Shown here: piece by piece, positions 4,313-59,487 of the stretch
How positions within the stretch are numbered: the first letter of the stretch is position 1
Layout of the letters: each line of letters begins with the position of its first letter
From: Shigella phage Moonfish
DNA length: 64,000 bases
Direction: 5' to 3' (one strand)
Sequence record: PQ613263
The notes under the pieces: generated by a model
What the model was told of the DNA's origin: nothing
Databases searched by the model: none
The model's input: the letters and a program-made list of their open reading frames with translations, nothing else
Program-made: the position numbers and the translations under genes

Positions 4313-6955
4313 ATGGGCTTATTCAGTGGGAAGACCAAAGTATACGTAGCATCCTCTGTCTATAACATGGCAGGGGATATACAGAAACGTCCAAACTATA
4401 TGAAGACTGTGGTCATTGGTAAGATTGTTGCTGATACAGGATTTACTATGGCAGACACTATCTCTGATAGTTATCTGAATGGACCGGGCATTCGTATGCG
4501 ACTGTTCTCCGGCTGGAGTAAGAACCACTATGACTCAGTAGTTGGTATGGCAGGTTCTTCATTAGGTGTACTAGCTAAGATTGACCCTACTGTTATAGAG
4601 GGACAAATTACCCCACCTGCTGGAGAATCTGTCTATGTTCAGGCAGCAGAGATTGGCTTTGCTGACTTTGAACAATGGTGTGACCAGTATCTTTATGAGA
4701 ATGCCCCTAGTCGAATCATGGAACGATTCGACGTAGACATTGATGAAGATACTAATGAGATTACTATGACCTCCTTAGATGGAGGTTCTACTATTACATT
4801 CACACCTACTAACTTTGAACCAGGTGCTTTGTATCTCTATGCTGATTACACATTCTATAAGTCCCCTTCTACCAATCCACCGGTAGTAGGGCCGACTACT
4901 GTCTACGATGATGAAGATGACCTACCTTCTACTTTGTTATGGACTACCGTTTCAAGTGATACTACAGCTAATACAACCAATCTTACTAAGACTATACAGA
5001 CCCATTCTGTTTACTCTGATGGCAGATCGGATGAAGATAGTACTGTTACTGAACCAAGTGTGGATAACTGGAACTCCTACGTTAAGGTTTATCGTAGAGG
5101 ATTCACTGAGAAACCCAATGATGTAACTGTAGTTGTATCTGACAGGGTAATGACCCATACAAAGTTTGGTGAGATTCAAACCAGTACTGCTGTAACTACC
5201 AATGTTGTTGATTTAGGTGGGGGTGTTACCCGTACTGACACAATCACTACAACTACAGAGACACTGGTTCGTAAGTATTCATCCCAGACTACTCGTACTG
5301 ATACTGAGATGACTGCTGTTGGTACACCTAAGCTGCTTATCTACAAGCAGAACTCCGGTAATGTTGCTCTGGATTCACTGTTTGAAACCGAGGCTACTGA
5401 TAACCGATTCTACCCATTCATCCCAATCAGGAATGATAAACAGTGGGTAGAAAATGACCCAATCTACCCGTACTGCAAGAAGGCTCTTTATAAAGCTACT
5501 GGTGGTAAACTCAATACAGTAATGACTGAGCTTAAGAAGAATGAGGACATAGGTGATATTCAATACATTTATGGCTCATTCGGTGTGTCTCTTAATACCC
5601 CAGAGGATACTGCTAAGGAATACATCTATCGTTTCTTTCAGATGGCTACTGAAGCATTCCCACCTGACCCAACCTACCCTACATTGGAAGCAGTGATTGC
5701 AGGTTATCAGGCAGCAAATGATGCAGTTGATGAATATGTAGCATGGTGGAACAGGCAGGAAGGTCAGATTGTTGGAACACCCCCTCCACTGCCAGAATAC
5801 CCAGTCATACCTAAACGAGAGTTTAGGGTACATAGTAATAAGCAGTACAAGTACGACATGACCATTGGCTGGAACTATGTATCTGAAACTACTCATTCAG
5901 GTGAAGCATGGTCTGGTGCTAAGCAGGGACAACTTCGAGCCAGATATGCAGGAGATATAACTCTTACTCGCAAGAACATACGTACAGGTGCTAACAACAA
6001 ACTGGAAGTTACTACTACGTTTTACTCTATGCAGGAGTACGAGTTACTTTGGCAGGATGGTAATGACACTTACCGTAAACTTAGAGTACTGGGTCTAAAT
6101 CACAATAACAGGGTATACAAAAATAAATCAGTAAGTATTGACGTTGCCGAAGCAATGGGTGATGCAGAAGAGAGTGGTTTCATTATTCCACTGCACACTA
6201 ACATCTACCGTTCAATGTCACTGGTTCGTAGTACCCAATTGTCTACTGCTTGCTCTTACTTAGTGATGAACTCATATAAGAAGGTTAAGCAGAAATGGTA
6301 TACATCATCTGCATTTAAGATTGTGGTTGTTGTAGTTGCTGTTGTTGTATCCGTATTCACTATGGGTGCTGGTGGTGCAGGTATTCTTGGGGCATATGGT
6401 GCAGTTGGTGCATCACTTGGTTTTGTTGGATTAGCTGCTGTAATAGTGGGTGCTGTAGCAAACGCTATTGCTGCAATGATTCTGGTATCCATCATCACTA
6501 AAGTATCCACTTCACTGTTTGGTGATAAGCTGGGCTTTATTGTTGCAGCTATTGCTTCAATGGTGGCTATGAACGTTGGTACTGCTATGTCTACTGGAAC
6601 ATCCTTATCCACCTTAGCTGGTGAGATGATGAATGCCCAAAACATCATGCAGCTTACTAGTTCAGTAGGTAATGGTATTAGTCAGTATATTAATGCATCC
6701 ACGGCTGCTACTATTCAGAAAGCAGAGAGTGTAATGCAGCAGTACAATACTGATATGATGGCAATCAATAAGCAGTATGAAGAGATGTTTGGTACTGCTG
6801 GACAGGGTGTAATTGACCCTATGCAATTTGTGTCAATGGAGTCGTTGGATTCTTTCTTATCACGTACTCTTATGACTGGTTCAGATATAGCTGACATGTC
6901 TTTAAACATGGTTGGAAGCTACTCTGATATGACTCTTAATACAGACCTTGTTTAA
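4313..6955 (+). CDS. large internal virion protein with C-terminal Gly/Ala-rich transmembrane segments (ejection/channel protein candidate)
   Basis: 880-aa ORF; residues ~660-760 are a long hydrophobic G/A/V-rich stretch (VVVVVAVVVSVFTMGAGGAGILGAYGAVGASLGFVGLAAVIVGAVANAIAAMILV...). Confidence 0.7.
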   Translation: MGLFSGKTKVYVASSVYNMAGDIQKRPNYMKTVVIGKIVADTGFTMADTISDSYLNGPGIRMRLFSGWSKNHYDSVVGMAGSSLGVLAKIDPTVIEGQITPPAGESVYVQAAEIGFADFEQWCDQYLYENAPSRIMERFDVDIDEDTNEITMTSLDGGSTITFTPTNFEPGALYLYADYTFYKSPSTNPPVVGPTTVYDDEDDLPSTLLWTTVSSDTTANTTNLTKTIQTHSVYSDGRSDEDSTVTEPSVDNWNSYVKVYRRGFTEKPNDVTVVVSDRVMTHTKFGEIQTSTAVTTNVVDLGGGVTRTDTITTTTETLVRKYSSQTTRTDTEMTAVGTPKLLIYKQNSGNVALDSLFETEATDNRFYPFIPIRNDKQWVENDPIYPYCKKALYKATGGKLNTVMTELKKNEDIGDIQYIYGSFGVSLNTPEDTAKEYIYRFFQMATEAFPPDPTYPTLEAVIAGYQAANDAVDEYVAWWNRQEGQIVGTPPPLPEYPVIPKREFRVHSNKQYKYDMTIGWNYVSETTHSGEAWSGAKQGQLRARYAGDITLTRKNIRTGANNKLEVTTTFYSMQEYELLWQDGNDTYRKLRVLGLNHNNRVYKNKSVSIDVAEAMGDAEESGFIIPLHTNIYRSMSLVRSTQLSTACSYLVMNSYKKVKQKWYTSSAFKIVVVVVAVVVSVFTMGAGGAGILGAYGAVGASLGFVGLAAVIVGAVANAIAAMILVSIITKVSTSLFGDKLGFIVAAIASMVAMNVGTAMSTGTSLSTLAGEMMNAQNIMQLTSSVGNGISQYINASTAATIQKAESVMQQYNTDMMAINKQYEEMFGTAGQGVIDPMQFVSMESLDSFLSRTLMTGSDIADMSLNMVGSYSDMTLNTDLV

Positions 6956-47861: not shown

Positions 47862-48988
47862 CTGCCAGAGGCTGTCATCCAGCTTACCCGCAGAGAACTC
47901 TTGTCCCAGTACCTGAGATAGGATGAAGCCCAGCAAGTCACTCTTAGCAATGTCAGATAGAATCTGATTGTACTGACGACGTAGGTCATTACCATAGTTA
48001 GGATGACAACGAAAACCATTAGTTAAACGAGTCGTTAGCTCGCCCTTACCTTCCATGATTAACATGAAAGCCATATGTAGCATCTGCTTGTTTACGAGCA
48101 AGCATTGCCTCCTCAAGTGTGTCGTACGTACCCAGACCGATCTGTTTGCGATTGACTGTGATGTGTGCCTGAAATCTACCAGAAGGCAGTATTCTCACAC
48201 CGTTCACTTTGCTTGAAGTATTACTAGATAAACTCATATTCATCTGGTTCTGTCTGCTGGTTACATTTCTCAAATTAGACCAACGATTGTCGTTTCTAGT
48301 ATGATTGATGTGGTCCACCTGGTTAGGTGTTTCCCCAGTTTCCATTATCCAGATTATTCGATGTAGTAAGTACTCTTTGCGGCCCAGGCTAACGGATAGA
48401 TACCCTTCTTTGTGAGGATACCCCACAATTGTTCCGGCTAACCCACTGGCAGAGTCATAACGATGAGTCACTAGCCCACTATCCCTGTCATACCTTAAAA
48501 CCTTCTGCAAAGATTCTTGGGTAATATTACCCAAGTTTATTATTAGGTTTTTACAGGTAGAGCATAGATGACCTATTGGACTCTTTCTAGCATCATAGAA
48601 GTTACAAACAAACTCATTAGAGCATTGCTTGCAACTACAGATAGCTGTGTACTTACCAGTTTTACGTAATATTTGAGAGTTATCTAACATATGGATTCCT
48701 TAGTAATTTTGCATACAATTTCAGATTGTATCCTAACCAAGGAAGTAAGTCTCCAATTTTCACTGGAGTATCGGACTATATCATCACCCACTAATCAGTG
48801 GGGCAAGGCGCTTGGGTGGTCACTTGACTCACCTACTCTACTCACATACGAAATGCTTTCGATAGTCTCTGAACCTTCCCTCATAGAGGGCTTGGCTGCT
48901 GATTGGCATATCCATAGGACTTAGCTTTCCAGCAATTCACCTTGTTTTCGACACGGATTACTCCGTGAAGGATCATTTATGTTTAATC
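47862..48988 (-). mobile_element. probable group I intron (~1.1 kb) in RNAP II large-subunit gene, carrying an HNH-AP2 endonuclease ORF
   Basis: Upstream ORF stops right after ...VLTVHD, 9-10 codons short of a T7-like C-terminus that is encoded 1.1 kb downstream in frame-compatible position; splice after caU with intron ending caG satisfies U/G group I rules. Confidence 0.55.
48046..48690 (-). CDS. HNH endonuclease with AP2 DNA-binding domain (intron-encoded)
   Basis: 214 aa; own AAGGAA RBS; HNH_3-like GYLSVSL...HRIIWIMETGETPNQVDHINHTRNDNRWSNLR; C-terminal AP2-like GVRILPSGRFQAHI...GTYDTLEEA. Confidence 0.8.
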   Translation of the reverse strand: MLDNSQILRKTGKYTAICSCKQCSNEFVCNFYDARKSPIGHLCSTCKNLIINLGNITQESLQKVLRYDRDSGLVTHRYDSASGLAGTIVGYPHKEGYLSVSLGRKEYLLHRIIWIMETGETPNQVDHINHTRNDNRWSNLRNVTSRQNQMNMSLSSNTSSKVNGVRILPSGRFQAHITVNRKQIGLGTYDTLEEAMLARKQADATYGFHVNHGR

Positions 48989-50014
48989 ATGTACAGTCAA
49001 TACAGGGAATGGCTTCTTAGGTAAAGTGTCCAGCATGTCTGCTACTACCTGACGGTCAACCATAGCAATAGTGCCTGGGTCGAGATAGTCGATAATAGAC
49101 ATAGATAAGAATCCAGACTTCTCGTAGTGTTCCCACAAGGTCTGTACCATTTCCATGTTACCTTCAATCTCCCCATACTCTGCTGGGCCTGTGTCGCAGA
49201 GTTCACGAACAGCAGCAACCAGGTTAGCATCGAAGTTACAACGACGCAGCATCTCGCGTACCACCATCCCATCAATAGAGTGGGTGATGTTAGCAGAGAG
49301 CATACGAGTCTTCTCTTCAGTACCCTGAACCATGCGGGTAATGTCGAATGGTTTACCTAAGAAGTTAACAGTCTGTACTTCTGGAACCATGACCTTAATG
49401 ACGGCATGGAAGTTGTCAGACAATACCCATACGTAACGGTTAGCATCCGGGTTACCACATTGCAGTAAGAACTTGTTCAATGCCCAAGGCCCACTAGCAA
49501 CAGTTTCCATTACATTCTCAAAAGTCTTGAGACGGATACCCTCACCGAATACTTCTTTAGGCTTAGCTTCTGAACCGTAGAATGCAGTCATAACTGCCTG
49601 CTTAGTGTCACTACGCTTAATACGAGATGCTTCACCAAGGATGTCCAACATCTTGTGATAGATAACTGTATAAGCATCACGACGTAATGGCTTACCGTTT
49701 TCACCCATGTAGTTAACTACGTTACACAGTTCAGCAGCAGAACGGTCACCAGTCAGGCAAGCCAGTAACTGCAAGCCTGATGATGTAGCATCCAGAGCTA
49801 CGGCATAGCCAATAGGCTTACCGGCTTTCATATCTTTCCATGCGTTTACACCTGCATAGAACAATGCGGATTCTTCAGCTTCATCTACCAGATTAAGCAG
49901 GTTAGCTTCGTTTTCATCGAACCAGCTAATACGTTCATCCCATGTTTTCTTATCCAGACCCATGTTATTCGCAATATCAATCTTTAAATATTCTTTCGCT
50001 GTGAAAAGCTGCAT
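48989..50014 (-). CDS. phage RNAP II large subunit (N4 gp16-like, T7-like catalytic half), 5' exon
   Basis: LDATSSGLQLLA (T7 motif A FDGSCSGIQHFSA), KQAVMTAFYGS (motif B), ITHSIDG (T7 H784 region), RELCDTG (motif C). Confidence 0.8.
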
Positions 50015-50598: not shown

Positions 50599-51417
50599 TT
50601 AATCCTCGTTTACTAACTCTTTATCTGCGAACTCTATAACTGCCTTATTGTAAGAGGTTCCCGCATAGTTAATATGGTATCCACATGCATATGTTCTTCC
50701 CCTCTTATCAAATTTATGTGCTAGTGAGAAGTTATTACCTTCTTTGGTCACTAACTCCATTACTTCCTTAGCTGTACGGCTGTACTTCTCAAAGGCTTTA
50801 ACTCGTTTCTCATAGTCCTGACGGGTTTCACCCTCTTTGGGTTTATCCATGTTAGGACGAGAGTCTTTTACATAGTTGGCAACGTCCCAGTTAATACAGA
50901 GTCGTTGGTTGTTCATACGGTTAATGTGGTCAAGGCAGACGTCCATCTCATGATGGTTCTTCTTGAGGATGATTGAGCCTTTAGATTCATAGTAGCCAGT
51001 GTCCCGATTAGTCAGGACTGGCTTAGGCTTACTGACGATAGGTAATGGATACTGGAATGCCTCCAGTTCCATCTGAACATCTTCACTAATCTCATAAATA
51101 ACACCGAACTTGTCGATGGTAGGGTCATAGTTGAAGCAGTCATTCTCTGCCATCTTATACAGACAGTCAGCGATATACTGAGCGTCATCTGAGTGACTCA
51201 TGAGAGAGCCAATCATAGTCTGAATGTCAGCACGTTTATGTAGGGCAATCTGCACCATTGCATCAATGAGCAGCTTATAATCAATTTCTAAATAGGCGGC
51301 GAATGCCTTAAAGTCAATTTCTTTGGAGTCCTCAAATTCCTTCCTCATGCGAGGGAGTAATTGGTTTTTGTTGAAAAGGATTTCAAGTTGCTTCTGATGT
51401 TCAATAGATGAGTACAT
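50599..51417 (-). CDS. phage RNAP II small subunit (N4 gp15-like, T7-like N-terminal half)
   Basis: 272 aa; KFDKRGRTYA matches the T7 RNAP DWRGRVYA motif; RBS AGGAG; directly upstream of the large subunit. Confidence 0.7.
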   Translation of the reverse strand: MYSSIEHQKQLEILFNKNQLLPRMRKEFEDSKEIDFKAFAAYLEIDYKLLIDAMVQIALHKRADIQTMIGSLMSHSDDAQYIADCLYKMAENDCFNYDPTIDKFGVIYEISEDVQMELEAFQYPLPIVSKPKPVLTNRDTGYYESKGSIILKKNHHEMDVCLDHINRMNNQRLCINWDVANYVKDSRPNMDKPKEGETRQDYEKRVKAFEKYSRTAKEVMELVTKEGNNFSLAHKFDKRGRTYACGYHINYAGTSYNKAVIEFADKELVNED

Positions 51418-51450: not shown

Positions 51451-51465
51451 AGCTGCGGAGCAGCT
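51451..51465 (-). promoter_or_regulatory. conserved GGA-triloop hairpin, candidate vRNAP-type early promoter
   Basis: AGCTGC-GGA-GCAGCT (6-bp stem, 3-nt loop) ~40 nt upstream of the RNAP II small-subunit start; identical 17-mer recurs at 54508-54524. Confidence 0.45.
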
Positions 51466-54011: not shown

Positions 54012-54398
54012 TTAGAAAGTCAGTTTACGAGCATATTTATTCTCATCGGCAGGAATAGATTCTTCCTGAGCCTTCACGCGTCTTAACTGAACTTGCAGGT
54101 TAATGATACCTTCTTCACCTGGTTCCAGGTTCTGAGCATATTCGATTAACTGTTCCAGCAAATCGTTCTGTGCACAACGCATAGCACGGAAGTCAGCATT
54201 GCTGCTATTAGTAGGCAGTGCTTCCTGAGTATCCAGTGGAATACCAGTAGGCAGAGAGATGAATTTCTCATCATCAGAGCCTTCATTAGCAACATAACCA
54301 ATGTTCAGCCAGAACTGAGCCTTAGGCTTAGCAGCTTTAGTTTCAGCAGTGGTAGCAGCAACGTTAGATTGACCGAAAGTGAATTTTTGAATAGACAT
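54012..54398 (-). CDS. hypothetical early protein
   Basis: Likely start at MSIQKF (GGAG RBS 8 nt upstream); the longer track ORF (to 54497) would begin inside the promoter-proximal leader. Confidence 0.5.
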
Positions 54399-54508
54399 TT
54401 TGTACTCTCCAGATAAATGATTGTTTGATTGATGGGTTTGTCTGTCGGTGACTAAACCCAAGAAAAGACTTAGGATTTCAATGATTAGTGGATGCATTTA
54501 CGTCCTCA

Positions 54509-54523
54509 AGCTGCGGAGCAGCT
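54509..54523 (-). promoter_or_regulatory. conserved GGA-triloop hairpin, candidate vRNAP-type early promoter
   Basis: AGCTGC-GGA-GCAGCT, identical to the element at 51451-51465 including one flanking A on each side. Confidence 0.45.
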
Positions 54524-54527
54524 ACTT

Positions 54528-54731
54528 TCAGACCGACTGCAATACTGACTTATCGTGAGGTAAGTCCTCAAGGGAGTTGAATACTTCTTCTGTGCTATCC
54601 AATCGGATACCAATGGATGGATCTTCAACCATTACACAGTTGTAATCAGTTGATTCATTTACTTTTTGTAACTCAAATCCACCATGTACAAAGAACTTTT
54701 CACCATCTTTAACGTCAACAAATGTAGCCAT
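54528..54731 (-). CDS. hypothetical small protein
   Basis: 67-aa ORF. Confidence 0.4.
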   Translation of the reverse strand: MATFVDVKDGEKFFVHGGFELQKVNESTDYNCVMVEDPSIGIRLDSTEEVFNSLEDLPHDKSVLQSV

Positions 54732-54785
54732 TTTATTACTCCAGTAGTTATAGGGATACCCAATAGAAGCGGAGCTTCTTGGTTT

Positions 54786-55232: not shown

Positions 55233-55553
55233 CTATTTAGTCAGGATGTCGATTACTTTTGAATATTCTGCGTTATAGATACGAGCGTTCTCTGAATCTT
55301 TGCAGAATTCTTCGATACTTTTCTTACGCATAGTCTCGTTCATAGCTGTTTCTTCAGCTAATTTGTTTACGAATGTATGCATTTCTAATTTAGTACGGAT
55401 GGCTTGTTTCTCTGCCATAGTAGATACATATGAATTAAGCATACCTACTGCTTTAGTAGCTGTGCCGAATGTATCTGCAACAGTAGTAGCAGCTGAGTTA
55501 ACAGTACCCAGTAAAGTTCCTGCGGTCATACGTACAGTAGCGGTAGTAGTCAT
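55233..55553 (-). CDS. hypothetical early protein
   Basis: 106-aa ORF downstream of the hairpin at 55596-55610. Confidence 0.5.
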   Translation of the reverse strand: MTTTATVRMTAGTLLGTVNSAATTVADTFGTATKAVGMLNSYVSTMAEKQAIRTKLEMHTFVNKLAEETAMNETMRKKSIEEFCKDSENARIYNAEYSKVIDILTK

Positions 55554-55595: not shown

Positions 55596-55610
55596 ACATG
55601 CGGAGCATGT
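55596..55610 (-). promoter_or_regulatory. GGA-triloop hairpin, candidate vRNAP-type early promoter
   Basis: ACATGC-GGA-GCATGT (6-bp stem, 3-nt loop, same C-GGA-G core) ~45 nt upstream of the 55553 start. Confidence 0.45.
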
Positions 55611-55820: not shown

Positions 55821-56147
55821 TCACTTATAAGCAGCTAAATAGGAGGGAGCATACACCAGGAATATGGATTGAAGGGTATCGCTCGATGTGAAGGTAAGGG
55901 TGTACTTATCAGTGTTCACATGCCAGGGGGAATGTACATATGTAGACCAGGGTAATTCCTTTCCTGGTTCCTGAAGTTTTACAATAACTTTCCTGCCTAG
56001 TATTAGAGCCAGACCTTTCACTTCATGAAGGGTTTGCTCATCTGGTACTAGGATAATAGGAGTGAGTCTACCTGGTTCGAGGTCTTGTAAGGTTGTATGG
56101 GCAGTGGGATTGGGTCCACCAGCATAACCTATCTTAGTGAGTTTCAT
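55821..56147 (-). CDS. small early protein, member of paralogous family (ILVPDEQ..HE..GL motif)
   Basis: 108 aa; core IILVPDEQTLHEVKGLALILG shared with 56848, 57456, 57736, 58336 ORFs. Confidence 0.5.
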   Translation of the reverse strand: MKLTKIGYAGGPNPTAHTTLQDLEPGRLTPIILVPDEQTLHEVKGLALILGRKVIVKLQEPGKELPWSTYVHSPWHVNTDKYTLTFTSSDTLQSIFLVYAPSYLAAYK

Positions 56148-56150
56148 TTG

Positions 56151-56528
56151 TTATACCCCGTAATCTATCTTAACCAGTCTACCTTTGTAGTAACCAAAGT
56201 TCTTAGGGAAGGCATCATACTCAAAGAACTCTTTACCGAGTGGCTGTGGTTCATTGGCTGCATCTAAGTATAGCTTCTCTAACTCTACCCAGAATAAACC
56301 AGTATGTTTCACAGGCTTAGCCCTGTGCATGATTAGAACCAGACCAAATCTATTAGAGTACTTGATTGGGCATAGGAACTTATTGTTGTAATCCTTCCAC
56401 TGTCCTTCAGTTAGATTGCTTAACATACCTTGTACGAAGTGTTTCCATGTAGAGAGGATAGGGAACTTAATTGCGTAATGACGAGTGAGTATTACCCATC
56501 TGGTTCCACCGGAGCGTATTAGTTTCAT
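56151..56528 (-). CDS. hypothetical early protein with kinase-like Gly-loop/AIK and C-terminal DYG motifs (speculative)
   Basis: 125 aa; SGGTRWVILTRHYAIKFP ... HRAKP ... KIDYGV. Confidence 0.45.
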   Translation of the reverse strand: MKLIRSGGTRWVILTRHYAIKFPILSTWKHFVQGMLSNLTEGQWKDYNNKFLCPIKYSNRFGLVLIMHRAKPVKHTGLFWVELEKLYLDAANEPQPLGKEFFEYDAFPKNFGYYKGRLVKIDYGV

Positions 56529-56851
56529 TTGGTAGCCTTGAATTGTGGTAACTGATTAAGAAGACTATCCATGTAGTAGCAGTATGCCTCGGAGGATTCG
56601 TCATTAATTGGAAGACCAATGAATCCAAAGGTATAAATGCAGAAGTGATTAAGCTCATGAACCAAGGTTATCTTACTATCATCAAATATACCCATAAGCA
56701 CAAAGTTGTCCGCTATGTAGCAGGTTTTTCCTTTAAGGGTTGTTTCCTTTTCTGGTTCAGTACCACGGTATGCTTTATGCTTCTTAGAGAATGTAGCCCA
56801 GTCATATACTACTTCTAACTGTACTGGATAGGGGGATGTGTTTAGTTTCAT
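56525..56851 (-). CDS. small HExxH-motif protein (mini-zincin candidate)
   Basis: 108 aa; VHELNHF followed by acidic ESSEAY. Confidence 0.45.
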   Translation of the reverse strand: MKLNTSPYPVQLEVVYDWATFSKKHKAYRGTEPEKETTLKGKTCYIADNFVLMGIFDDSKITLVHELNHFCIYTFGFIGLPINDESSEAYCYYMDSLLNQLPQFKATK

Positions 56852-57132
56852 TGTCTTTCCTTATAGATTAGGGTGTTATCCTCGAAGGATAGAATGTACT
56901 TGTCTGTATTGAGATACCAAGGACTGAAGCTCCCCTGCCAGGACATAGGTGCACTTGGTTCAAGTAGATGTACTTCTGCTTTCTTATTGTATAAGAAAAG
57001 TAATCCTTGTAGTTCATACAAGGACTGTTCGTCTGGAACCAGGATAAGTATATCAGCATCCATGCGAGCTACTTCTTTATGGTGGGAGCAAACATTTCCG
57101 AATTCTCCTGAATAATTTTTATAGATAACCAT
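56848..57132 (-). CDS. small early protein, paralogous family member
   Basis: 94 aa; ILILVPDEQSLYELQGLLFLY ... SPWYLNTDKYILSF parallels the 55821 ORF. Confidence 0.5.
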   Translation of the reverse strand: MVIYKNYSGEFGNVCSHHKEVARMDADILILVPDEQSLYELQGLLFLYNKKAEVHLLEPSAPMSWQGSFSPWYLNTDKYILSFEDNTLIYKERQ

Positions 57133-57452
57133 TAGCAGCTCCCGTCGCTAGATAAATATGAGGTAGAAGGATAGAGGGTAATGAGTCTACCAGTAAGAGT
57201 AGTAGCTACCATAGGTTCGCTGGAGGAGTAGATGTATACCCTCTTACCTTCTGGTATCTCAATAGAGGTATCTATCTTAACAAAGTTAATAGGTACACCT
57301 AACATTAGACAAGAACCAATGAACTCATCTGCTTCCTCACTGGGTTCATAATAGACAGTGACACCATCCAGTTTACCTTCGAAGAAATCCCTCTTAGTTA
57401 GACCAGGCCATCTAATGTTAGAACTGTATGCAGCTAATGTGTAGAAGTGCAT
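57132..57452 (-). CDS. hypothetical early protein (possibly distant member of same family)
   Basis: 106-aa ORF. Confidence 0.45.
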   Translation of the reverse strand: MHFYTLAAYSSNIRWPGLTKRDFFEGKLDGVTVYYEPSEEADEFIGSCLMLGVPINFVKIDTSIEIPEGKRVYIYSSSEPMVATTLTGRLITLYPSTSYLSSDGSC

Positions 57453-57455
57453 AGC

Positions 57456-57770
57456 TTACTTCCTTACATAGTAATAACGGTATTCGTCATTCTCATAACG
57501 ACTAACCCATTGGTAGTCATCAGACACCAACATATATGGGATAGGGTCACCTGCACTGTAGTCGGTATAGACAGAAGGAGGAACAATGCATACAACCTTA
57601 CGGGCATTACCTGCTAAGAAGAGTTGACCCCTTACTTCGTGATAATCTTCTAAAGTAGGAACCAGGATTACTTGGTGAGGATTACTGTTCATGACTTCTT
57701 CTAAAGTGAAGTCAGTTGTGTACAGTAACTTCTCTTTAGTAAAACTGAGGACGGTCATTATGAATTTCAT
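57456..57770 (-). CDS. small early protein, paralogous family member
   Basis: 104 aa; VILVPTLEDYHEVRGQLFLAG. Confidence 0.5.
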   Translation of the reverse strand: MKFIMTVLSFTKEKLLYTTDFTLEEVMNSNPHQVILVPTLEDYHEVRGQLFLAGNARKVVCIVPPSVYTDYSAGDPIPYMLVSDDYQWVSRYENDEYRYYYVRK

Positions 57771-58134
57771 GATGGATTCTCCTTCCTTTGGGAAGAGGTC
57801 TGAAGTAAATGGAAAGTGTTTTATTAAATACGTTATGGTCAGCTATCAATTCCCAACCATCAATCTTATAGAAGCGTACACCGGGAAAGAATGTAGTGAA
57901 GTCACTATACTTAGTGAGGTCATACACCCTTGGTTCAGTAAGTATCTCGGTATTGAGTTGCAGGTTGGATAAGAAAAAAGAACCAATAACTTCATGGGAC
58001 TCTTCACAATCAGGTAAGAAGACTTGCTGCCATGGAGCAATGAACTTACTTACTGCTTCTGGTTCTCCTAAGAGATAAGGCTCCTGCCCTCGTAGTACTC
58101 CGGTAATATCAAAATCAAAACAGTAGATGCTCAT
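57736..58134 (-). CDS. small early protein, paralogous family member
   Basis: 132 aa; VFLPDCEESHEVIGSFFLSN; GGAGG RBS. Confidence 0.5.
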   Translation of the reverse strand: MSIYCFDFDITGVLRGQEPYLLGEPEAVSKFIAPWQQVFLPDCEESHEVIGSFFLSNLQLNTEILTEPRVYDLTKYSDFTTFFPGVRFYKIDGWELIADHNVFNKTLSIYFRPLPKGRRIHHEIHNDRPQFY

Positions 58135-58160: not shown

Positions 58161-58186
58161 GGGGTAGAGCCTCTCGACTCTACCCC
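58161..58186 (-). terminator. hairpin plus T-run (terminator/attenuator) in early region
   Basis: GGGGTAGAG...CTCTACCCC 9-bp stem followed on the minus strand by ATTTCTTTTT, immediately before the RBS of the 58134 gene. Confidence 0.5.
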
Positions 58187-58242: not shown

Positions 58243-58255
58243 CCTACGGAGTAGG
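58243..58255 (-). promoter_or_regulatory. GGA-triloop hairpin (fourth copy of the C-GGA-G hairpin class)
   Basis: CCTAC-GGA-GTAGG 5-bp stem, 3-nt loop. Confidence 0.35.
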
Positions 58256-58335: not shown

Positions 58336-58626
58336 TCACATCATCTCCGTCATCCGAACGCTATCTTTGCTTCGTTTGATGGAGACACTATGAGGTAATT
58401 TTGTGAAGAACACAATAGCAGAAATAGCTTTTTCTAAAGAGTAACTTTTTGCAGGTTCTTTGACGGTAACCCCTGAAACGTTTTCAAGGAGGAGTATACC
58501 GGACAACTCGTGGTATTCCTGCTCGGTCGTGGTAATGATGATATCTCCTGGCAGGAACCCAGCCTTCTTGTGGTCAAGTTCTACATATCCGTCAAAGGTA
58601 TCATCGCTTTTGGTAAATAGTCTCAA
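58336..58626 (-). CDS. small early protein, paralogous family member (TTG start)
   Basis: 96 aa; IIITTTEQEYHELSGILLLEN; AGGAG RBS 9 nt upstream of a TTG start. Confidence 0.45.
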   Translation of the reverse strand: MRLFTKSDDTFDGYVELDHKKAGFLPGDIIITTTEQEYHELSGILLLENVSGVTVKEPAKSYSLEKAISAIVFFTKLPHSVSIKRSKDSVRMTEMM

Positions 58627-58797: not shown

Positions 58798-59487
58798 ATG
58801 AGTGAGCTAACTAAGCAGCAGATCATTAATGCCTTACCTGCTAACTTCAAAAACAGTGTGACCCAGGAGTTAGTAGATACAATTAACAACATAACCCAAG
58901 ACCAACTGGTTGCTGAGTCCTTCCGTGAAAACTTCATCTCTTACTCTGGTGTTATGAAAGAGGGTAAGTTTAAGACACAGGACTACATGAATGCAGTTCA
59001 GTATGTGACTTACAAGCACATGGGCTACTCAAATAAAGAAGCCTACTTTAAAACATTCCCCAACCGACAAGCAGAACTTGTAGCACGGGGAACCAGTGAG
59101 AAAGATATTAGTGCTTATGTATCTGCTTATCACAGGGGTAAGTTAGTTAACCTCATCATGGAACAAAGTTTGGTTCCAGTGTGGATTGTGAACCAGGACA
59201 ATTATCAGAAGGCAATCAATGTTCAGGTTGAACTGATGACTACAGCAGCAAGTGAGAAAGTAAGATGTGATGCAGCTAACTCTATCCTTACTCACTTAGC
59301 TAAACCAAAAGACCAGGTGACTAATATCAACCTGGACTTGAGGGAGAACTCTGGGTTGACTGACCTCAAGGCAACACTTGCTGCATTAGCTGAACAACAA
59401 ATTAATGCAATCAATAGTGGTGTACCTACTAAAGAGATTGCTGGTTCTAAACTAGTACGTGCAGATGAGGACATTACAGATGTCTGA
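58798..59487 (+). CDS. first gene of late operon; terminase small-subunit candidate (positional)
   Basis: 229-aa ORF immediately upstream of and overlapping the terminase large-subunit gene. Confidence 0.4.
   Translation: MSELTKQQIINALPANFKNSVTQELVDTINNITQDQLVAESFRENFISYSGVMKEGKFKTQDYMNAVQYVTYKHMGYSNKEAYFKTFPNRQAELVARGTSEKDISAYVSAYHRGKLVNLIMEQSLVPVWIVNQDNYQKAINVQVELMTTAASEKVRCDAANSILTHLAKPKDQVTNINLDLRENSGLTDLKATLAALAEQQINAINSGVPTKEIAGSKLVRADEDITDV

Follow-up and report, generated by a model that had tools for sequence, protein, structure and literature searches.

The Shigella phage Moonfish (sequence record PQ613263; the 64,000-nucleotide stretch that was analysed is called the window below) encodes on its minus strand a 125-amino-acid (aa) protein, referred to here as the mini-kinase, whose fold, judged from structural models, is very probably that of a kinase cut directly behind the DFG motif, i.e. 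a kinase-like ATP-binding fold. We tentatively read the protein, at a little less than an even chance, as an autonomous, radically shortened protein kinase-like (PKL) domain that would have a phosphotransferase mechanism, a protein target and a role in takeover or counter-defence. The assignment to the PKL superfamily is based on the predicted fold together with a full, ordered set of catalytic residues and not on any single significant sequence score. A first-pass annotation of the window had proposed a speculative mini-kinase in this open reading frame (ORF); the fold and the motif set are supported by the results below, whereas the catalytic loop had been misassigned, the remark on motif spacing did not hold and early expression is not established.

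The mini-kinase matches PHROG 4301, a family labelled 'unknown function' (E 9.1e-31, residues 1–124 aligned with positions 39–167 of the 225 in the profile), and all conservation figures were computed over 122 diverse members of this family. The translation reads MKLIRSGGTRWVILTRHYAIKFP...LVKIDYGV, with SGGTRWVILTRHYAIKFP at residues 6–23, HRAKP at 68–72 and DYG at 122–124, so that the 125-aa ORF and every string quoted in the first-pass annotation lie where it had placed them. The features of the gene, with the putative roles of the encoded segments, are as follows.

56151..56528, minus strand: mini-kinase ORF, complete, with ATG start (125 aa, 14.8 kDa, pI 9.7)
56493..56513, minus strand: putative nucleotide-binding loop S6-G7-G8-T9-R10-W11-V12, a β1-turn-β2 unit (strands 2–6 and 10–14) recognised by conservation
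56466..56474, minus strand: A19-I20-K21 in β3 (strand 18–23), the AxK motif with the putative VAIK-type lysine; A19 is Ala in 97 and Val in 24 of 122 members
56403..56447, minus strand: αC-like helix of the AlphaFold2 model, residues 28–42; codon of E41 at 56406-56408
56313..56330, minus strand: end of β5 (strand 65–68) and hinge, M67 followed by H68-R69-A70-K71-P72
56259..56303, minus strand: αE-like helix of the model, residues 76–90, ahead of the catalytic loop
56193..56219, minus strand: predicted catalytic loop Y104-D105-A-F-P-K109-N110-F111-G112; family consensus [D/E]-x-K-x-x-[N/S]-F-G
56157..56165, minus strand: D122-Y123-G124, the DFG equivalent, presumed to bind Mg; V125 and the stop follow

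The AlphaFold2 model of the Moonfish protein, built on an alignment of close homologues, had a predicted local distance difference test (pLDDT) value of 90.1 and a predicted template modelling (pTM) score of 0.79. It is composed of β-strands at residues 2–6, 10–14 and 18–23, a helix at 28–42, strands at 55–58 and 65–68, a helix at 76–90, a short helix at 99–103 and strands at 111–114 and 117–120. The five-stranded antiparallel sheet with an αC helix between β3 and β4, by which a PKL N-lobe is recognised, is present in this model, and the order of elements was the same in a divergent member (P0061) modelled independently on its own alignment (pLDDT 92.0). When the model was compared with the PDB using Foldseek, the top 50 matches were all protein kinases (probability 0.84–1.0, query-normalised template modelling (TM) score 0.44–0.59), the best E-value being only 2.5e-3. 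Comparison with BFVD gave 23 viral matches at E<1e-3, many of them uncharacterised phage proteins of 130–220 aa, with a 'Protein kinase domain-containing protein' of Ralstonia phage RP12 as the best match (E 3e-9, query-normalised TM score 0.76). Structure prediction, the check by which the first-pass annotation had proposed to judge its suggestion, thus returned a kinase-like fold with both AlphaFold2 and Foldseek.

The pattern of a Gly-loop glycine, an AxK lysine and a C-terminal DYG, on which the earlier suggestion had been built, was found to be conserved across the 122 members beyond what chance would give. G7, R10, K21 and E41 are invariant (122/122 each), and P23, G34, N38 and G112 are at 98% or above, with counts of 121/122 for G34 and 119/122 for N38; the latter two, together with F31 (111/122), are the near-invariant residues of the αC-like helix. 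The consensus of the loop is G-x-[TS]-R-x-V, i.e. a single invariant Gly and an invariant Arg and not GxGxxG, with Thr or Ser at position 9 in 114/122 members; V12 (120/122) stands at the position of the Gly-loop valine, while R10 has no Hanks equivalent. A β3 lysine and an αC glutamate were found 20 residues apart (K21 and E41), and E41 is presumed to be the salt-bridge partner of K21. At the C-terminus, D122 (121/122) is a DFG-type aspartate 12 residues after N110 and is followed by Y123 (111/122, 91%) and G124 (103/122, 84%).

HRAKP, which the first-pass annotation had listed beside the Gly-loop and the lysine, is no HRD-type catalytic loop but a variable hinge behind M67, which occupies the gatekeeper position (Met in 105/122, 86%): H68 is replaced by P, K, E or R, K71 varies, and only R69 is kept (R in 95, K in 22). 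The real loop lies at residues 104–110. Position 105 is Asp in 63 and Glu in 57 members, position 107 is Lys in 93, and position 110 is Asn in 75 and Ser in 45 (n=122). The pairs formed by positions 105 and 110 are DN in 63 members, ES in 45, EN in 10 and DS in none (Fisher's exact P 3e-23, uncorrected for phylogeny), and this strict covariation suggests that the two positions work together. Two subfamilies can accordingly be distinguished, D-x-K-x-x-N (e.g. SDAKPENFGY...VKIDYG) and E-x-K-x-x-S (VENKxDSFGW...VAVDYG). A strict D-x-x-x-x-N is present in the Moonfish protein (D105...N110) and in 63/122 members, E/S being a variant. The Moonfish branch reads D-A-F-P-K-N, with Lys at D+4, as against D+2 in 93/122 members. 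In HRDLAARN of tyrosine kinases an Arg stands at D+4; this likeness is a parallel and not evidence for Tyr specificity.

These loop residues bear on a different reading, that of a small-molecule or nucleic-acid kinase acting on a nucleotide, a signalling molecule, a sugar or an RNA 2'/5'-OH in the manner of APH/choline kinases or archaeal Ark1. Small-molecule PKL kinases carry H-G-D-x-x-x-x-N without the D+2 lysine, whereas D-x-K-x-x-N is the majority form in the family, and no recurring metabolic or RNA-repair neighbour was found beside the genes; such an activity seems distinctly unlikely.

Motif spacing, which the first-pass annotation had called atypical, was compared between the Moonfish protein and PKA. 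From K to E (K21–E41) there are 20 residues (19 in PKA), from D to N (D105–N110) 5 (5) and from N to D (N110–D122) 12 (13), so the term does not apply; the distances from G to K and from E to D are 14 and 64 in Moonfish and 20 and 75 in PKA. With 91/122 members ending at most one residue past the glycine of DYG, the truncation is the norm of the family and not an artefact of the Moonfish ORF, and about 80% of members lack the activation segment and αF–αI; 16/122 extend more than 10 residues further. That some 80% of members are cut precisely at the DFG, that a minority have 10–140 extra C-terminal residues, and that the genes are tightly packed and translationally coupled with their neighbours would all suit one half of a split kinase, whose C-lobe would come from another phage protein in trans or through homodimerisation. 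This explanation is nevertheless highly improbable, since the adjoining genes are unrelated in all contexts examined and no Pfam kinase family was found in the extra C-terminal parts of the longer homologues.

Several points weigh against the proposal of a shortened PKL phosphotransferase. i) Searches of Pfam, NCBIfam, PADLOC and PDB sequences gave no significant match with either the single protein or the family profiles, and neither the Moonfish protein nor any of the 122 members matched Pkinase, even at E<=1 to 10. ii) When the family profiles were run against all PDB sequences, the kinase TTK/Mps1 ranked first, at an E-value of only 0.13–0.5. iii) In half of the family the catalytic Asp and Asn are replaced by Glu and Ser, an uncommon feature in active Hanks kinases. 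iv) We know of no active kinase that lacks αF, the helix anchoring both hydrophobic spines. v) The biological role is suggested by analogy alone.

The alignment with TTK ('flpvDaKpeNFGylngrlvkiDYG') places the catalytic loop and the DFG in exact register, the loop corresponding to HSDLKPANF of TTK and YRDLKPENL of PKA, and the profile of the D-type subfamily also aligns the αE-like helix with αE of TTK (E 0.13, non-significant alone). With hhalign and five Hanks kinases (PKA, CDK2, p38, PknB and Src), P was 0.025 for the family and 0.009 for the D-type, the matches covering only the catalytic loop and DFG segment. Marginal matches were those of three members to PIP49_C (the FAM69 kinase domain; E about 1e-3) and of two members to ABC1. 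No bridge to annotated kinases was found in a profile search of 5.8 billion proteins, none of whose 121 matches had a precomputed Pfam domain. The only recurrent Pfam signal was a sub-threshold match to DUF3440 over residues 18–76 (β3, αC, β4 and β5), with an E-value of 1.4e-3 for the Moonfish protein; it recurs in 7/23 close homologues (best E 4.5e-4).

The same comparisons bear on the possibility that the protein is a trimmed enzyme of the SAICAR-synthetase/ATP-grasp type, which would form an acyl-phosphate and then ligate, its kinase likeness reflecting a shared ancient ATP-binding core. Escherichia coli PurC aligned by hhalign over 23 residues with E 0.12, a score similar to those of the kinases, and single-sequence hhalign likewise gave non-significant local matches with similar scores for kinase and PurC. 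PurC was, however, never among the PDB profile matches of the family profiles, and neither a profile or sequence match to SAICAR synthetase (PF01259) nor its three-subdomain architecture of ~240 aa was found. PurC (237 aa) also has an extra subdomain and lacks the AxK/αC-Glu pair. We consider this origin very improbable.

Under the proposal of a shortened phosphotransferase, the protein would retain the whole N-lobe (five strands and the αC-like helix) but only part of the C-lobe, namely the αE-like helix, the catalytic loop, the β7–β8 hairpin and the DFG-type Asp, after which it ends. Mg-ATP would be bound in the cleft beneath the G7-x-T9-R10 loop; K21, held by E41, would position the α- and β-phosphates; Mg would be held by D122 and N110; and D105 would serve as the base. 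The γ-phosphate, as it is passed to a hydroxyl, would be neutralised by the invariant R10 together with K109, whose counterpart in most relatives is K107. Since D-x-K-x-x-N is the Hanks Ser/Thr signature, a protein hydroxyl would be the most likely acceptor, and since there is no activation segment, P+1 loop or αF–αI, the substrate site may be open, which would suggest low specificity, or may be completed by self-association or by a host partner. It is because every residue class for Mg-ATP binding and transfer is kept while the parts that hold a peptide are missing that we propose an Mg-ATP-dependent phosphotransferase with an open or partner-completed site. By analogy with T7 gp0.7, the enzyme might act in takeover or counter-defence by modifying proteins of the host or of the phage; phage kinases have been described as broad anti-defence factors (PMC13645617).

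ATP binding, phosphotransfer, substrate class and biological role are what we infer from these features, with differing confidence. Real phosphotransfer to a substrate, as suggested by the conserved residues, has about an even chance; a protein as the substrate is possible, although we would lean against it; and an anti-defence role, argued from analogy, is rather unlikely. It is also doubtful, if conceivable, that a half kinase of 110–135 residues acts alone or as a homo-oligomer, in which case it would be the smallest protein-kinase-like enzyme known and a portable phage weapon that phosphorylates with low specificity and is aimed at host functions or defence systems.

Loss of the substrate-binding elements could also be read in another way, as leaving a nucleotide-dependent switch or ATPase, or a silent ATP binder (pseudokinase), that would block or redirect a host protein as Bud32 does in KEOPS and the RIO kinases do on the ribosome. 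The structural neighbours of the model include Bud32 (3en9/8unk), Rio1/2 and OspG, the smallest known PKL proteins, which act mainly as ATPases or need a partner, and the surface exposed at the αF packing site would favour a partner. On the other hand, an acidic residue is kept at the catalytic-base position in 120/122 members and the D+2 Lys in 93/122, residues that are needed for phosphotransfer and not for binding alone, and no conserved partner gene was found. We regard such a switch as unlikely.

An exhaustive hidden Markov model (HMM) search of 1.84 billion cluster representatives showed the family to be large, with 1,012 clusters (50% identity) at E<=1e-3 and 417 at E<=1e-10. Close homologues of the mini-kinase, at 55% identity or more, number 44, and divergent and longer homologues fall in PHROG 4301 too. 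Nearly all members are from phages and have 110–135 aa (median 125, interquartile range 121–132). Using tblastn, homologues were detected in 101 phage records, including T4-like, T1-like (Drexlerviridae), rV5-like, FelixO1-like, Seuratvirus and jumbo phages, the last infecting Escherichia, Erwinia, Klebsiella, Aeromonas, Pseudomonas and Edwardsiella. There are 2–3 copies per genome in some jumbo phages of Aeromonas and Shewanella. No bacterial or archaeal homologue was found in 185,579 species genomes, a weak test in which the search patterns came from close relatives only, so that the apparent restriction of the family to phages is weakly tested.

The copies in N4-like, T4-like and T1-like phages share 73–76% identity, which points to recent exchange. 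Among the Gamaleyaviruses the gene is sporadic, being present in phi G17 and missing from Bas96. Neighbours are unrelated in N4-like, T4-like, T1-like, rV5-like and jumbo phages, among other contexts. No conserved partner or operon was shared across 6 phage contexts and 3 metagenomic contigs, the genes that flank the Moonfish copy upstream (an HExxH gene, see below) and downstream being absent beside the homologues, and no conserved fusion partner was found. The mini-kinase is thus a single-gene accessory cassette that is swapped among unrelated lytic phages and travels alone. In the T4-like phage vB_EcoM_G4507 (locus L005 2501-2881), it lies in a variable stretch between an ipI-like internal-protein gene and a tRNA cluster, along with several small genes annotated only as hypothetical.

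A few longer members (P0166, P0192) have N-terminal hydrophobic segments resembling transmembrane helices ahead of the mini-kinase domain, which suggests that some versions may be membrane-anchored. Other longer homologues, namely Kc263 gp027 (267 aa), AH04_186 (163 aa) and pEa_SNUABM_5 gp070 (133 aa), were independently labelled Ser/Thr kinase by the GenBank submitters; none of the three has a Pfam kinase match, and all belong to PHROG 4301. A literature search found no publication on PHROG 4301, its family or phage 'mini-kinases'.

The window belongs to an N4-like coliphage of the Gamaleyavirus/G7C group, for which the nearest record is phage phi G17 (86% DNA identity over 66% of a 3-kb probe), and encodes a 3,456-aa virion RNA polymerase (vRNAP) ORF and a terminase. 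Mapping of its small ORFs onto N4 placed the mini-kinase gene between gp71-like and gp1-like genes; the counterpart cluster of small rightward genes in N4 lies at the extreme right end of the linear genome. The homologues of N4 genes and the sites relevant to transcription are listed below.

58798-59487, plus strand: gp69 homologue (78% identity)
58336-58626, minus strand: gp70 homologue (38% identity, E 7.5e-24)
57736-58134, minus strand: gp71 homologue (27% identity, E 2e-7)
56525..56528, minus strand: ATGA in which the stop codon of the upstream HExxH ORF overlaps the mini-kinase start, read directly from the sequence
55596-55610, plus strand: GCGGAGC hairpin with perfect 6-bp stem and GGA loop, just upstream of the gp1-like gene
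55233-55553, minus strand: gp1 homologue (66% identity)
54765-54779, plus strand: GCGGAGC hairpin with perfect 6-bp stem and GGA loop, just upstream of a 67-aa ORF (54528..54731)
54509-54523, plus strand: GCGGAGC hairpin with perfect 6-bp stem and GGA loop, just upstream of the gp2-like gene
54012-54497, minus strand: gp2 homologue (66% identity)
51455-51461, plus strand: GCGGAGC core, upstream of the gp15-like gene
50599-51417, minus strand: homologue of RNAPII subunit gp15 (65% identity)
48983-50014, minus strand: homologue of RNAPII subunit gp16 (67% identity)

The gene lies within a tightly packed minus-strand operon, as seen from the ATGA overlap with the upstream ORF (56525..56851), which suggests translational coupling in one operon, and from the next ORF (55821..56147, minus strand), which begins 3 nt past the mini-kinase stop. 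Its GC content is that of its neighbours, so that there is no sign of recent acquisition. The upstream ORF (56525-56851, minus strand) encodes a 108-aa protein of PHROG 1365 (unknown function) that carries LVHELNHF. Homologues in N4-like, Guernseyvirinae and Ackermannviridae phages (30–47% identity) all keep its H65, E66, H69 and E88, and since E88 is 19 residues past the second His, the HExxH...E pattern is like that of a very small gluzincin-type metallopeptidase. This HExxH gene is found in most Gamaleyaviruses, with or without the mini-kinase, and a comparison of the two homologue searches showed that most phages carrying it have no mini-kinase. Six further small minus-strand ORFs of 94–132 aa (55821-56147, 56848-57132, 57132-57452, 57456-57770, 57736-58134 and 58336-58626) are tandem paralogues sharing '..ILVPDEQ..HE(V/L).G..L......EP', with E42, G45 and P61 invariant. 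The homologues of N4 gp70 and gp71 are among the six, so that the right-end pair of N4 has been expanded in the Moonfish window; the mini-kinase and HExxH genes are inserted among the copies.

The first-pass annotation had also called the mini-kinase an early protein. The early promoters used by the N4 virion RNA polymerase form hairpins, each with a 3-nt loop and a GC-rich heptamer whose centre is at -11, and they are restricted to the left end, the end injected first (PMC4496689). The heptamer GCGGAGC occurs 4 times in the window (55600, 54769, 54513 and 51455), always on the plus strand, from which leftward genes are transcribed. In N4, hairpins with the cores of the stems at 54765-54779 and 54509-54523 lie upstream of gp2 and gp15 (N4 positions 557-573 and 4546-4562), and the four sites are probably vRNAP promoters of Moonfish. 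The mini-kinase gene lies in the cluster matching gp70/gp71 and, in the sense of transcription, upstream of all four; the homologue of the HExxH gene ends 0.1–1.1 kb from the right end of several N4-oriented GenBank records. With every GCGGAGC site downstream of the gene and the counterpart cluster at the right end of the N4 genome, early expression is not established. The gp70-like and gp71-like genes are separated by a strong terminator-like hairpin (58161-58186, minus strand; 11 pairs, 7 of them GC, followed by a T-run), preceded by a weaker, promoter-like hairpin, CCTAC-GGA-GTAGG (58243-58255; 5-bp stem, GGA loop), an odd arrangement.

Among known systems, the Hanks kinases (PF00069; PknB, PKA and TTK/Mps1) are the top structural and profile neighbours of the family. 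They share with it the N-lobe topology, the Gly and Val of the Gly-loop, the AxK Lys, the αC Glu, the gatekeeper Met, D-[FY]-G and, in the majority form, D-x-K-x-x-N, and the spacing of the motifs is almost the same. Unlike them, the mini-kinase has less than half the length, lacks the activation segment, APE, αF–αI and the His-Arg of HRD, and has a single-Gly loop with an invariant Arg; half of its family has E-x-K-x-x-S, and no Pfam match reaches the threshold. OspG/NleH, Bud32/PRPK, RIO and Ark1/ArkI, with which no sequence similarity was detected, have 170–270 aa and keep αF and part of the helical C-lobe, whereas the mini-kinase ends at the DFG. As modelled, the family is an extreme stand-alone kinase core that stops at the DFG; it is widespread in phages, and the curated domain libraries that were searched do not contain it. 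If it is active, it would represent the minimal catalytic unit of the kinase fold, with ~120 residues as against 170–270 in the smallest characterised members, and phosphotransfer would be possible without the αF-centred C-lobe, commonly regarded as an obligatory scaffold for the spines of kinases. If it is inactive, it would provide a clean natural case of how much the kinase fold can lose while staying stable. A large PHROG of 'unknown function' would gain an annotation that can be tested, and a kinase core of 15 kDa might be of use as an engineering scaffold.

T7 gp0.7 (T7K) and JSS1_004 of a Salmonella phage resemble the mini-kinase in being phage-encoded, kinase-fold and accessory. To our knowledge, they are the only phage kinases linked to counter-defence so far. 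T7K differs in its kinase domain of about 240 aa, its DPV motif and its shut-off domain. A relationship with T7 gp0.7 was considered and rejected, as hhalign of the family alignment found no meaningful alignment and only phrog_4301 was matched. Jumbo coliphages of the 121Q/G17 group carry a distant T7K-like gene some 3 kb away from a PHROG 4301 mini-kinase; in vB_EcoM_CRJP21 (OQ708376.1), tblastn located the distant T7K-like gene at 318791-319300 and the mini-kinase at 322474-322821. As these are two separate genes, the 'jumbophage T7K homologues' of PMC13645617 differ, in CRJP21, from the mini-kinase. T7K and JSS1_004 are a precedent for broad anti-defence by phosphorylation (PMC13645617), and the PHROG 4301 family, if active, would stand beside them as a second class of phage kinases, unrelated to the first and much more widespread.

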